Virus record (IMG/VR): IMGVR_UViG_3300035501_000484 | Span: 1-64,000 of that record | Length of the DNA: 64,000 nt | Source: a virus | Strand: one strand, 5' to 3' | Shown: one piece after another, positions 25,581-29,401 of the stretch | How the letters are laid out: each line of letters starts with the position of its first letter | How positions within the stretch are numbered: position 1 is the first letter of the stretch | Notes under the pieces: generated by a model | What the model was told of the DNA's origin: nothing | The model's input: the letters and a program-made list of their open reading frames with translations, nothing else | Database searches by the model: none | Made by a program: the position numbers and the translations under genes

Positions 25581-25609
25581 TTGACAAATAAACTTTTTCG
25601 TGTTATAAT
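25581..25609 (+). promoter_or_regulatory. perfect-consensus sigma70 promoter (TTGACA, 17 nt spacer, TATAAT) for the plus-strand DGR cassette
   Basis: ttgacaaataaactttttcgtgttataat, followed by the RBS aaaggagaa and the ATG at 25651. Confidence 0.65.
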
Positions 25610-25650
25610 ATAATTATGAAAAAGAACAGAGAAGAAAAGGAGAACTTTAT

Positions 25651-27315
25651 ATGGCAGATGAAAAAGTAATTTCATCTTGGGATAGCGGAGCTAATGACAC
25701 TAATAATGATACTGTTGAGAGTTTAGCTAGAAGCGTTCAAGACTTAACTGTTCAGTTAATGGAGGTATCTAAAATAGTGGACGAAAATAATAGCTTTAAT
25801 AGTTATATAAGTAAATCATATGCTTTACAAAGAACAGGTAAAGTATTTACAACTAAATTTCCAAGATATGATATTTCTACTAGTTCAACTGGTATGAAGA
25901 TGGATGATAATGAAAATATGGTTTGTACACCTTCCTCTCCTTCTACAAAAAATAGAAATGATTATGAGAGTGAACCAATGTTCAAACCTATTGAATGTAA
26001 TTGGGAATTAGATGATGAAACAGGTAAAATAATAATAACAGCACTTCAAGATAGTACAGACCCAGATAATAAATTTGCTCGTGATGGTTCAAATGGACAA
26101 GTGGGTATTTTAAATATGCCTTGGTATGCAAAGACATGGGAAGATGATTACTATTGGTATATTTCAGTTAGTGATACAGGATATGATGGCTACACATTAT
26201 TACAAGAATGTTTAGACCCAAGTGGTAATAATCAAGGATTTATGGTACATAGTAAATATGCTATGGTTGATATTGATGGTAAGCCTTATAGTGCAAGTGG
26301 AAGAAAACCTCTTGCTGGAGAAAATGCAACACTTAATACTACAGTTAAACCTAATTTTAATAATTTAGTTGCTTATTGTAGAAAACATAATAATTACTAC
26401 TGTGCGGAGACTAGTGCTGATTTATTCTTTATTCAATTACAAATAATGATAAAATATGCTACAATAAATTCACAAAGTGTGTTAGGTGGATGTACAAGTT
26501 ATAATTATACCTATCAATGTAGAGAATCTACTGAGAATGAGAATTATGCAATATTAACAACAAGTAATGCAAATAATTTAGTAGTAGGTTCATATGTTTC
26601 TATTGGTACTATAAGTGGAGATAGATATAATACTACAAATCATGATGTTGTATGGTCAGCAAAAATTCTTAGTATTAATGCTATTGAAGGAACATCAAAT
26701 AGTAGAGTAACATTAGATACTGAAGCTTTTAGTACAGATGCTACGATGTTTATGGTAACAATGCCTTGGTGGACAGGGGCTTGTGATAATGTACTAGGAA
26801 TAGATGGCTCTGCGGGTGAATCGGCTACATCACAAAAATATCCAGTATTAATTGGTGGAATTGAATGTTTCTTAGGTGGATATGAAGTATTAGGTAATGT
26901 AATCATGGATATTCAAACTGTTGAAGATGCTACAGTTCAAAGAGATGTTTATATTTGCCATGATGCAACTAAGATAAGCACTAATGTAACTACTATGAAA
27001 GCTAATAGTAAAAAGAGTGAATTTGTTATACCTGGTTATACAAATGGATATATTTCTAAGCATAGTATTGATTTAAATAATAGCATTATGGTTCCAACTG
27101 AATTTAGTGCAACATCAAATACAGGATTTGCAGATTATATATACTTCGACCAAGGAACATCAGGACAAAGAGAATGGTTGGGGTTTGGCGCTCTGTACTA
27201 TGGTACCGGTGCTGGTGCTTGGCTTCTGGCTGCGCACCATAGTCTCGGTACCTCGCACTGGGATATCCTGTCGCGTCTAAGCCCTAATGGAATGTGTAAT
27301 AGTATTAACGCATAA
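25651..27315 (+). CDS. DGR target (variable) protein, likely receptor-binding/tail-fiber-type, with C-terminal variable repeat
   Basis: 554 aa. The last ~35 codons (GFGALYYGTGAGAWLLAAHHSLGTSHWDILSR) form the VR matching the downstream TR; this stretch is GC-rich relative to the genome. Confidence 0.7.
   Translation: MADEKVISSWDSGANDTNNDTVESLARSVQDLTVQLMEVSKIVDENNSFNSYISKSYALQRTGKVFTTKFPRYDISTSSTGMKMDDNENMVCTPSSPSTKNRNDYESEPMFKPIECNWELDDETGKIIITALQDSTDPDNKFARDGSNGQVGILNMPWYAKTWEDDYYWYISVSDTGYDGYTLLQECLDPSGNNQGFMVHSKYAMVDIDGKPYSASGRKPLAGENATLNTTVKPNFNNLVAYCRKHNNYYCAETSADLFFIQLQIMIKYATINSQSVLGGCTSYNYTYQCRESTENENYAILTTSNANNLVVGSYVSIGTISGDRYNTTNHDVVWSAKILSINAIEGTSNSRVTLDTEAFSTDATMFMVTMPWWTGACDNVLGIDGSAGESATSQKYPVLIGGIECFLGGYEVLGNVIMDIQTVEDATVQRDVYICHDATKISTNVTTMKANSKKSEFVIPGYTNGYISKHSIDLNNSIMVPTEFSATSNTGFADYIYFDQGTSGQREWLGFGALYYGTGAGAWLLAAHHSLGTSHWDILSRLSPNGMCNSINA
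27180..27276 (+). repeat. DGR variable repeat (VR)
   Basis: 97 bp repeat with 15 mismatches to the TR at 27836..27932. Every mismatch lies at a TR adenine. Confidence 0.8.
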
Positions 27316-27336
27316 TCAAAAGGAGAATAAGAAAGT

Positions 27337-27651
27337 ATGATGTTACAATCACCAATTAAACAAAAAGAATTTGAATATTTCAAATTGCCTGATACAGATT
27401 ATGCGGATGTTATTATTTGTCGTAATGAACAGGAAATTACTGATGAAAATGGTCAGTTAATGTATCAATATGATTGTAACCAATTTAGGACAGAATTAAG
27501 TAAAGAGACAATAGAATCAAATCTTGATTTTTATTTCTCTTTTACTCCAAAAAGCGATGTAGATTATCCTAAAGAATTGGCTACATTAGAACAAAAGTTA
27601 AATGATGCTCAATTAGCATTATGTGATATATATGAATTAATAAATATATAA
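27337..27651 (+). CDS. hypothetical acidic protein between VR and TR (not Avd-like)
   Basis: 104 aa and acidic, whereas Avd proteins are basic. RBS aaaaggagaa upstream. Confidence 0.3.
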   Translation: MMLQSPIKQKEFEYFKLPDTDYADVIICRNEQEITDENGQLMYQYDCNQFRTELSKETIESNLDFYFSFTPKSDVDYPKELATLEQKLNDAQLALCDIYELINI

Positions 27652-27672
27652 AATTAATAGAGGATTTATTAT

Positions 27673-27786
27673 ATGGATAAAATATATGCAGATTTAATTT
27701 TAAAAGGACTAAAAACCATAGACGATGTACCTGCGTCTTTAAAAGAAAAGGTTCAAAAAATATTAGATGAAAGGAATTTGAAATAA
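27673..27786 (+). CDS. small ORF (37 aa), possibly XkdX-like tail-fiber-associated protein
   Basis: Not in the ORF track (under 60 aa). RBS tagaggatt then ATG. MDKIYADLILKGLKTIDDVPASLKEKVQKILDERNLK resembles small XkdX-type proteins next to fiber genes. Confidence 0.25.
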   Translation: MDKIYADLILKGLKTIDDVPASLKEKVQKILDERNLK

Positions 27787-27835
27787 AGTTCTAAATAATT
27801 TAATATAATAAAATATACAAGGCTTTATAATTTGC

Positions 27836-27932
27836 GGGGTTTGGCAATCTGAACAATGGTACCAATGCTGGTGCTTGGATTCTGAATGCGAACAATAGTC
27901 TCGGTAACTCGAACTGGAATATCCTGTCACGT
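27836..27932 (+). repeat. DGR template repeat (TR)
   Basis: Adenine-rich copy of the VR (many AAC/AAT codons), intergenic, upstream of the RT gene. Confidence 0.8.
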
Positions 27933-28195
27933 TTTCTTTGATACACTATAATTTTAACTAGATAATTTATTTAAACTTGATAAAATTATAAAGCGCCCTA
28001 AAGAGGTCTTAGCTTAGAGTATTTTACTCAAAATTCATTTAATTTTTGATTTTTTAACTTGAAAAAGTTAAAGCATGAAAATGCAATGAAGTTAGTAAAT
28101 TATAATTTAGTTTTGTATATTTTCAATAAAAAGAATATTTTACAATAACCAAATTATTTTTGAACACTTTATATCAAATCAAAGAGGATTATTTT

Positions 28196-29401
28196 ATGCA
28201 CCATTCTTATTGTAAGAATGTAAACATTTTAGATAGGGAAGGTATTTATTTTTGTATTACTCAATGTTTATCTGATAAGTGGAATAGATATGATGTTATA
28301 AATTTCATTAATGAATATCTTCCTAGTTTTAGTAAAGATGAAGTTAGAAATATTATTAAATATAATAGAGATTTTTTAAAAGGAACCTTATATACAATCG
28401 CGGATGTCCTCGCTTATGAGATTAAGACGCGGACGGTACATTTTAAACCTATTAAATATAAAGAGAAATATGATAGCAATTCTAAGAAAACTAGAGAAAT
28501 AGGTGTCCAATCTATTAAACATCAATTATATGATTATATTGCAGTTTATTATGCAAGAGAAGTATGGGAGAAAAAGATTGGAGACTATCAATGTGCTTCA
28601 ATGCCTGGTCGAGGTCAGGTATTTGGTAAAAAATTAATAGAAAATTGTATTAGAACTTTTCCTAAAAAGACGAGATTTGCAGTTAAAGGAGATATTAGAA
28701 AATGTTATCCTTCAATTAATACTAGAAGATTGAAAAAGTTATTAAAGAAAGATATAGATAATGAAGATTTACTATATCTTATTTTTTATTTAATAGACTC
28801 TTTTAAACAAGGATTGTCGATAGGTTCTTTTCTTAGTCAATATTTATGCAATTATTACTTATCATTTGCTTATCATTATATAGAAACAAATTTAAGTCGT
28901 AATTATTATTTTATGTTATTTTATATGGATGACTTTATTCTTATAGCAGAAAATAAATCTGAATTAGCTACGGCGATGATTAAGATAGTTCAATATTTTA
29001 AAGAGTATTTAGACTTAGAAGTTAAAAATACTTGGCAAATATTTCCAATAGATTATTTTAGTAAAGATGGTAAAAGACGCGGTCGCGCAATAGATATGAT
29101 GGGATATGTAATTTATAAAACTCATACAGAAGTTAGACCATGTATCTTTTTAAAGGCTAGACGATTATATATTTATACTTATATACATTACGGGCAATTT
29201 AATAAGAGAATACCAGAGAAATTAGCACATCAATGCATTTCTTATTATGGTTGGTTTGTAAATTCTAATTCAGAATGGTTTATTAGAGAATATAATGTAA
29301 AGAAATTAGTTCATATGTCTGAAGTTGCGGTATCTTATTATTCAAAGCAAAAAAATAATAGAGAATCTTTAAAACGAGATTCTCTATTTTTTTTATTCTG
29401 A
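28196..29401 (+). CDS. DGR reverse transcriptase
   Basis: RT motifs VKGDIRKCYPSIN, YMDDFIL (YxDD) and the DGR-specific GLSIGSFLSQ (I/LGxxxSQ). Start placed at ATG 28196 with RBS aaagagga; the track ORF starts at TTG 28160. Confidence 0.8.
   Translation: MHHSYCKNVNILDREGIYFCITQCLSDKWNRYDVINFINEYLPSFSKDEVRNIIKYNRDFLKGTLYTIADVLAYEIKTRTVHFKPIKYKEKYDSNSKKTREIGVQSIKHQLYDYIAVYYAREVWEKKIGDYQCASMPGRGQVFGKKLIENCIRTFPKKTRFAVKGDIRKCYPSINTRRLKKLLKKDIDNEDLLYLIFYLIDSFKQGLSIGSFLSQYLCNYYLSFAYHYIETNLSRNYYFMLFYMDDFILIAENKSELATAMIKIVQYFKEYLDLEVKNTWQIFPIDYFSKDGKRRGRAIDMMGYVIYKTHTEVRPCIFLKARRLYIYTYIHYGQFNKRIPEKLAHQCISYYGWFVNSNSEWFIREYNVKKLVHMSEVAVSYYSKQKNNRESLKRDSLFFLF

Follow-up and report, generated by a model that had tools for sequence, protein, structure and literature searches.

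Does the only block of plus-strand genes in an otherwise minus-strand phage sequence form a working diversity-generating retroelement (DGR), and could such an element operate without the accessory protein Avd? The question is raised by positions 25581 to 29401 of a 64,000-nucleotide stretch of viral DNA (positions 1 to 64,000 of IMG/VR record IMGVR_UViG_3300035501_000484, referred to below as the window), in which an earlier note, made from the sequence alone, had described a complete DGR consisting of a target gene with a variable region (VR), a template region (TR) plus a reverse transcriptase (RT). That observation is confirmed and its interpretation is supported by the present analysis, and we conclude with high confidence that the locus is a functional, or very recently functional, accessory-free 'TR-RT' DGR in a phage of about 140 kb and 30% GC. 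The direct observations behind this conclusion are a pattern of TR/VR differences confined to adenines, an RT of the DGR type, a lectin fold in the target, several VR alleles on an invariant TR, and the lack of a detectable Avd.

Adenine-Specific Divergence of the Repeats

A repeat search of the window returned a single family of 97-nt direct repeats, whose two copies lie 656 nt apart and are 85% identical (coordinates of all features are collected in Table 1). In an ungapped base-by-base comparison the TR base is an adenine at 15/15 mismatches, opposite which the VR carries five G, eight C and two T. Given 25 adenines in the 97 nt of the TR, the hypergeometric probability of this distribution is 2.1e-11, and the homology stops abruptly at both ends. 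The exact alignment agrees in this respect with the earlier note, which had counted 15 differences and placed every one at a TR adenine. Allowing up to six non-adenine substitutions, no second VR was detected in the window.

Read in the frame of the target open reading frame (ORF, 25651-27315), 14 of the 15 changes affect the first or second base of a codon, and ten of the TR codons concerned are AAY (Asn), while the remaining change, which is also the last, is synonymous (TCA/TCG). The coding capacity of the TR amounts to about 10^14 protein variants, among which a stop codon is impossible. Both repeats are richer in GC than their surroundings, as had been claimed, with values of 59.8% for the VR and 46.4% for the TR compared to 29.7% for the window. 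The 97-bp VR was also correctly located at 27180-27276, but it does not comprise the last ~35 codons of the target, since it spans codons ~511-542 and ends 12 codons before the stop.

Natural Alleles of the Variable Region

The same element was retrieved by exact-protein look-ups in the Logan and JGI assemblies, yielding 12 contigs from at least nine samples, ten of which include the VR; these comparisons concern assemblies only and are made at the consensus level. Throughout the 12 contigs the TR is 100% identical, with some flanks just 94-95% identical, as is the case for strain L092 compared with the window. The ten VRs represent three alleles, found in 4, 4 and 2 contigs, which differ from the TR at 15, 14 and 13 positions and never at a non-adenine position. 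Compared pairwise, the alleles differ at 16-18 sites, and 22/25 TR adenines are altered in at least one of them. The bases at TR-adenine sites over the three alleles (33 A, 15 T, 14 G and 13 C) indicate that about half of the adenines are kept, with the rest evenly spread over the other bases. Strains L092 and L042 differ at 18/97 positions of the VR, compared with ~16/982 of the flanking DNA.

These data show at least three independent outcomes of adenine-mutagenic homing together with purifying selection on the TR, and such natural VR variation on an invariant template counts, at assembly level, as evidence of DGR activity. VR heterogeneity, which the earlier note had recommended looking for in metagenomic reads or related phages, is present among these assemblies and confined to the TR adenines. 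Searches with an adenine-masked TR pattern and a pre-VR junction pattern gave 0 matches in IMG/VR and JGI metagenome contigs. In JGI sample 3300035498 two VR alleles occur together on separate short contigs (L092 and L098), and their coexistence may be the cause of assembly breaks around the VR.

The Reverse Transcriptase and Its Clade

RTs of the DGR clade are distinguished by a [LIV]GxxxSQ motif, which replaces the QGxxxSP of group II RTs, and by a YxDD motif. The RT ORF of the window contains both, in the form of GLSIGSFLSQ and FYMDDF, as had been read from the sequence before, and the bRT protein of Bordetella phage BPP-1 is by far its best structural and sequence match, in keeping with an RT of the DGR type rather than one of the group II or retron type. 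The window enzyme exceeds bRT by ~70 residues, having additional residues at its N-terminus and a long helix at its C-terminus. The ORF is intact and 98-100% conserved among strains. At E<=1e-10 it belongs to a clade of 544 proteins, throughout which all RT catalytic motifs are invariant and whose hosts include prophages of Blautia, Coprococcus, Dorea, Hespellia, Collinsella, Bifidobacterium and Bacilli.

The identity of the window RT to its counterparts at IMG/VR and genome loci ranges from 40 to 57%, and is ~30% to that of Faecalibacterium phage FP_Epona. Tail-protein DGRs in gut Firmicutes phages form a major and well-documented group (viral DGR clades of Roux et al. 2021, PMC8144416). The window RT falls into the same clade as the RTs of such elements, for example those of FP_Epona and of Blautia and Lachnospiraceae prophages, or into a neighbouring one. 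Like the window, these gut Firmicutes elements show a tail-fibre module followed by a lysis module.

The Target Protein

The VR is located at the 3' end of the coding target, on a fold known to tolerate variation. As the earlier note had proposed to verify, the C-terminus of the 554-aa protein has a C-type-lectin (FGE-like) fold. TaqVP from Thermus aquaticus (PDB 5vf4) offers a comparison at a sequence identity of 10-15% only. Whereas TaqVP is a cellular protein, the window target is a phage tail protein, and it possesses in addition an N-terminal coiled-coil helix and extra beta-rich domains. The target belongs to the same family as Blautia prophage proteins, with ~42% identity.

Absence of Avd and Accessory-Free Architecture

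Avd is found in 74% of DGRs and is thus a typical, not a universal, component. It is present in the BPP-1 element (mtd-VR, avd, TR, brt) and missing from that of the window, where 0/44 small ORFs match the Avd family in Pfam, in a search that covered 64 kb of the ~140-kb genome. The same holds for 0/93 small same-strand ORFs within ~4 kb of the RT at 31 diverse loci of the clade. Since only 85-260 nt separate VR from TR and ~210-230 nt separate TR from RT in this clade, there is no room for an Avd gene in these gaps. The claim that no basic Avd-like ORF is present consequently stands, the ORF in the avd position encoding a protein with an isoelectric point (pI) of 4.15.

In contrast to BPP-1, the window has two unrelated small genes in the interval from VR to TR, and their description as acidic and XkdX-like is borne out by the pI of the 104-aa product and by an NCBIfam NF040910 match of the 37-aa product. 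The 104-aa protein contains 21 acidic and 9 basic residues, has no match in Pfam, PHROG, NCBIfam or PADLOC, and has seven close homologues only. A 145-aa ORF (L003_145) situated 3' of the RT in loci of the L003 type is homologous to it (blastp 5.6e-11), and the C-terminus of this homologue in turn resembles the 157-aa ORF at 29533-30006 (-) of the window, located after a 2144-aa fibre-like gene (3.6e-7); a direct profile comparison of the 104-aa and 157-aa ORFs was negative, so the connection runs solely via L003_145. The 37-aa and 42-aa ORFs, the latter at 29393-29521 (-), are paralogues (blastp 1.4e-10). Both small genes are, by these relationships, predicted tail-fibre accessory genes outside the retroelement. 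Identification of the 104-aa ORF as a divergent Avd was considered and rejected, as it is acidic, matches no family, has a homologue that sits after the RT and is linked to an XkdX-like gene.

The gene order in most relatives is target-VR-TR-RT-[acidic]-[XkdX-like], followed by holins. The two fibre accessory ORFs stand between VR and TR in the window, in L002 and in L001, the closest IMG/VR relative (IMGVR_UViG_3300013936_000013, 141 kb), and are absent from that position in most other relatives. A TR-RT core lacking avd, HRDC, MSL and CH1, with two intervening ORFs that match none of these, corresponds to architecture A1 and to the avd-less lineage of Wu et al. (PMC5758913), in which TR is likewise followed by RT without any of the four. 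Architecture A1 further shares with the window an upstream target with a C-terminal VR, association with phages and Firmicutes-type hosts, and the window RT may belong to 'Lineage 3' of Wu et al. (PMC5758913). Accessory-free architecture A accounted for 75/372 DGRs in that survey, and no avd was found elsewhere in the genomes bearing avd-less DGRs (PMC5758913). Roughly one in four to one in three of the catalogued DGRs is accessory-free, and no experimental study of one was found in the searchable literature. One of the 93 clade ORFs, near a clade RT, contains a MutS domain I (PF01624, 1.7e-10), which recalls the MSL genes (PMC5758913), and an MSL accessory gene may occur sporadically among the relatives.

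RNA Elements around the Template Region

The TR is flanked by two arms, GCTTTATAATTT and AAATTATAAAGC, which form a perfect Watson-Crick helix of 12 bp. Relatives possess equivalent helices of unrelated sequence, namely GTTTTATACTT/AAGTATAAAAC, CTTATGAGGTC/GACCTCATAAG, TGTAACGCT/AGCGTTACA and CACAGTGCAG/TTGCACTGTG. Over 32 non-redundant loci, the best upstream/downstream helix scored a mean of 22.1 in matched pairs versus 16.8 in cross-locus pairs; the matched mean was reached in 0/20,000 permutations, and the window pair ranks 1/32. The minimum free energy (MFE) fold of 27800-28200 misses this duplex and favours a competing local AU-rich hairpin, so the support for it is comparative and not thermodynamic. 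In most relatives the distance from the TR to the 3' arm is 17-26 nt, compared with 50 nt in the window. Compared with BPP-1, the spacing of about 20 nt in most of the clade leaves no space for an Avd-binding stem-loop.

Directly downstream of the 3' arm, the first hairpin of the spacer is kept as CCUAAGNAGG in a subgroup of eight sequences with two covarying pairs, and other hairpins take its place in other subgroups. Beyond it the spacers contain another hairpin and then the motifs (A/G)AAAUU and UAGUAG/UAGUAA, and this order of elements is common to the window, L001 and many clade loci. A whole-spacer MAFFT alignment of 23 loci was too divergent for a reliable consensus structure.

Cryo-EM of the Bordetella phage system revealed that a TR-upstream segment pairs with Sp59-70 in an 11-bp duplex, behind which come a short stem-loop and adenosines (bioRxiv 10.1101/2023.10.23.563531). 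This 'cPRT Stop' is needed for cis-primed synthesis, marks the end of the cDNA, and is present in 207/278 of the Avd-containing DGRs examined (bioRxiv 10.1101/2023.10.23.563531). The duplex in the window would fit the same role by analogy, since its 5' arm ends 2 nt short of the TR/VR homology. We infer that the Avd-less clade keeps a cPRT-Stop-like element, mostly too near the TR to accommodate an Avd-binding stem-loop.

Alternative Explanations

Several findings weigh against a functional, accessory-free DGR. Whereas BPP-1 carries an initiation of mutagenic homing (IMH) element composed of (G/C)14 plus 21 bp and a GC-rich hairpin after the VR, the window has neither. The search for an IMH or hairpin just 3' of the VR, suggested in the earlier note, found no more than a weak stem of 6 bp enclosing a 10-nt loop (70-nt fold, z -0.2) in a region that leads directly to the ribosome-binding site of the next gene. 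No 35-bp IMH of the Bordetella type is present. TR/VR differences extend, in contrast to BPP-1, as close as 3 nt to where homology ends, and the invariant 3' tail has a median of 9 nt across the clade. The last difference, A27929 versus G27273, with G in two VR alleles and A in one, may have arisen by adenine mutagenesis or be a fixed difference of the IMH/IMH* type. The spacer hairpins of the window are no stabler than shuffled sequence (z 0.11), and a template:primer duplex near the 3' arm, analogous to Sp47-56:TR117-129, was no better than cross-locus controls (p 0.84). The ten VR contigs give just three alleles, each of which recurs in several samples, so that the consensus VR did not vary within the span sampled; its diversification may be infrequent, episodic or a past event. 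Finally, the search for Avd reached only 64 kb of the genome.

Some of these points would suit a fossil DGR, which diversified its VR in the past and is now inactive, its three alleles being old and strain-linked. Each allele is found in 2-4 samples on somewhat different strain backgrounds, and the VR-flanking hairpin and long IMH are missing. Such a history is nonetheless quite improbable in view of an RT that is intact and almost unchanged among strains, with catalytic motifs invariant in the clade, and of a TR kept perfectly in 12 contigs whose flanks diverge by up to 5-6%. Moreover, there is not a single non-adenine difference between the TR and any VR allele, which argues for a recent last homing in each lineage. 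We also consider it unlikely that the element depends on Avd or a substitute encoded elsewhere, or on the acidic 104-aa protein as a novel accessory factor, even though the window represents ~46% of the ~140-kb genome and members of the 104-aa family always occur beside the cassette, whether in the VR-TR interval or immediately past the RT. The 31 loci devoid of Avd within ~4 kb of the RT include prophages in bacterial genomes, and the genomes of avd-less DGRs surveyed by Wu et al. have no avd at other sites (PMC5758913). As for the 104-aa protein, its pI contrasts with an Avd average of 9.5, its relative L003_145 shares a C-terminus with the 157-aa ORF that follows a fibre gene without a VR, and it accompanies an XkdX/CD1375-like gene in the manner of tail-fibre modules. 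Hardly credible is an ordinary diverged duplication with a coincidental adenine bias beside an unrelated RT from a group II intron, a retron or a defence system. The RT does elicit generic RT and DRT matches in PADLOC and NCBIfam scores for group II intron RT/maturase (48 bits) and retron RT (21.5 bits), but the latter remain far under the cut-offs of 300 and 235 bits, respectively, and bRT is the better match by a wide margin. Rfam detected no family in 24000-31000 at E<=1, including no group II intron or retron RNA, and the adenine-only pattern, with a probability of 2e-11 in one allele, is repeated in two more.

Proposed Mode of Action

For the favoured reading of a functional or very recently functional TR-RT element, the mechanism may be outlined as follows. 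An RNA holding the TR and the downstream spacer would be reverse-transcribed by the adjacent RT, template adenines would be copied unfaithfully, and the resulting cDNA would replace the VR at the 3' end of the tail receptor-binding gene. Up to 14 codons on the ligand-binding face of the C-type-lectin fold could be re-randomised in this way, drawing on the ~10^14 stop-free variants, with altered host-receptor specificity as the expected outcome. With the Bordetella phage DGR as a guide, the 12-bp duplex together with the small hairpin may act like the 'cPRT Stop', setting the 5' limit of the cDNA and helping to place the RNA on the RT so that synthesis is primed in cis, which in this clade would take place without Avd.

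Feature Map and Transcription Signals

Table 1. Features of the DGR locus, in positions of the 64,000-nt window.
Feature	Position	Strand	Remarks
Divergent promoter-like site	25522-25494	-	10/12 consensus
Promoter-like site TTGACA-17-TATAAT, extended TG	25581-25609	+	12/12 consensus, upstream of target
DGR target, 554-aa tail receptor-binding-type protein	25651-27315	+	C-terminal C-type-lectin (FGE-like) fold
VR	27180-27276	+	Codons ~511-542 of the 554-aa target; 15 differences from TR
104-aa acidic protein, pI 4.15	27337-27651	+	Predicted tail-fibre-module accessory gene, not Avd
37-aa CD1375/XkdX-like protein	27673-27786	+	NCBIfam NF040910 2e-11; PHROG 1382 1.1e-14
5' arm of TR-bracketing duplex, GCTTTATAATTT	27822-27833	+	Ends 2 nt before start of TR/VR homology
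TR	27836-27932	+	25 adenines, 10 AAY codons
Non-coding TR-RT spacer	27933-28195	+	Presumed cis-acting part of the DGR RNA ('Sp'-like)
3' arm of duplex, AAATTATAAAGC	27983-27994	+	50 nt after TR
Hairpin 1, CCU-AAAG-AGG	27997-28006	+	Directly after 3' arm
Hairpin 2, GAGUA-UUU-UACUC then AAAAUU	28017-28029	+	In spacer
UAGUAA motif	near 28094-28103	+	In spacer
DGR reverse transcriptase, 401 aa	28196-29401	+	IGSFLSQ and YMDD motifs; AGAGGA ribosome-binding site upstream
Bidirectional terminator-like hairpin, inverted repeat	29357-29388	both	13-bp stem, T runs on both strands

The site at 25581-25609 is the sole 12/12 consensus match in 25000-30200 and likely the start of the plus-strand operon, as a putative promoter; promoter-like sites overall are no commoner than in shuffles. 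The cassette had been described as bracketed by divergent promoters, which is true of its left end, whereas the right end, where the RT converges with the 42-aa ORF (-), is occupied by the terminator-like hairpin. That it is the only plus-strand block holds for credible ORFs, the other plus-strand ORFs of at least 90 aa all having GTG starts and overlapping minus-strand genes or tRNAs. A sigma-70-like match of 11/12 (TTGAAA-16-TATAAT, 28126-28099, -) lies inside the TR-RT spacer facing the TR; as a putative promoter it would yield RNA antisense to the TR, and it may be due to chance in AT-rich DNA.

The Carrier Phage and Its Gene Content

The window is almost wholly minus-strand coding, and the longest contig carrying its proteins measures 139,648 bp. 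With its ~140 kb, 30% GC, topoisomerase II subunits, DNA and RNA ligases, DnaB-like helicase, RNase H and 14 tRNAs, the carrier differs from most relatives, which are prophages of ~40-70 kb. No DNA match was obtained in GenBank phages (blastn on 25400-29600) or in IMG/VR, and the topoisomerase II is at most 37% identical to that of any catalogued phage.

The TR-RT unit is placed at the junction of two convergent fibre modules, 29393-36497 (-) and 25651-27786 (+), both laid out as [fibre/receptor-binding protein]-[acidic protein]-[XkdX-like] with members of 2144 or 554 aa, 157 or 104 aa, and 42 or 37 aa, respectively. The VR is found in the smaller module only, and the 2144-aa protein has no Pfam match at E<=1e-4. 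Directly upstream of the DGR block and divergent from it, the region 23535-25472 (-) encodes a 349-aa nucleotidyltransferase with a C-terminal CodY-type helix-turn-helix and a NinI-like Ser/Thr phosphatase of 243 aa.

Elsewhere in the window, a 165-aa RNase H (14502-14999, -; PF00075, 2e-29) adjoins the topoisomerase II genes; it probably serves replication and could act on RNA:cDNA hybrids. The 14 tRNA genes are located among small ORFs at 39660-49203 (-) and comprise Cys, Gly, Thr, Arg, Ala, Gln, Lys, three Ser, Leu, Tyr, Glu and Ile, with no suppressor tRNA. Alongside this array there is RNA-repair-like content at 37780-39249 (-) and 53198-54415 (-) plus one small ORF, including a PHROG 850 'RNA-binding protein' (2.2e-116), a PHROG 968 RNA ligase (1e-56) and, in the small ORF, a cyclic-phosphate-processing receiver domain (cREC_REC, PF20274, 9.8e-17).

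The relative L001 carries in-frame TAG codons in its DGR target and RT (positions 4907, 6319, 6643 and 6766), two of which align with glutamines of the window, namely the Q of the IGSxLSQ motif and a Q of 'DQGTSGQRE'. L001 appears to use TAG-to-Gln recoding, judging by this alignment, and translation of its DGR would then require an active suppressor. Code 11 gives a clean reading of the window.

Significance

Current understanding is not overturned by this element, as DGRs on gut-phage tail proteins are common and expected and the accessory-free TR-RT architecture is known; new is this large phage as its carrier. Two points are mildly novel: comparison of loci supports a duplex resembling the cPRT Stop in a clade that lacks Avd, and fibre accessory genes are inserted between VR and TR. 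In terms of annotation, a well-supported DGR is added to a previously undescribed large phage, with the 554-aa protein as its adaptable receptor-binding protein, which may be used for host-range inference and for tracking strain dynamics by VR alleles.

With its compact TR-spacer-RT unit, a definable TR-bracketing duplex and natural alleles proving adenine mutagenesis, the clade is a reasonable candidate for reconstitution. It is possible, though we lean slightly towards doubt, that this RT clade, which has more than 500 proteins and is widespread in Gram-positive gut prophages and in the ~140-kb phage lineage, is a true two-component DGR, in which the RT by itself would make cDNA, primed in cis and mutagenised at adenines, with neither Avd nor another protein, its RNA partner being a compact spacer RNA with a cPRT-Stop-like duplex and mostly no space for an Avd-binding stem-loop. 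If true, the clade would represent a natural minimal DGR, providing a simpler chassis for engineered targeted mutagenesis, and would reveal which parts of the Bordetella ribonucleoprotein are dispensable.

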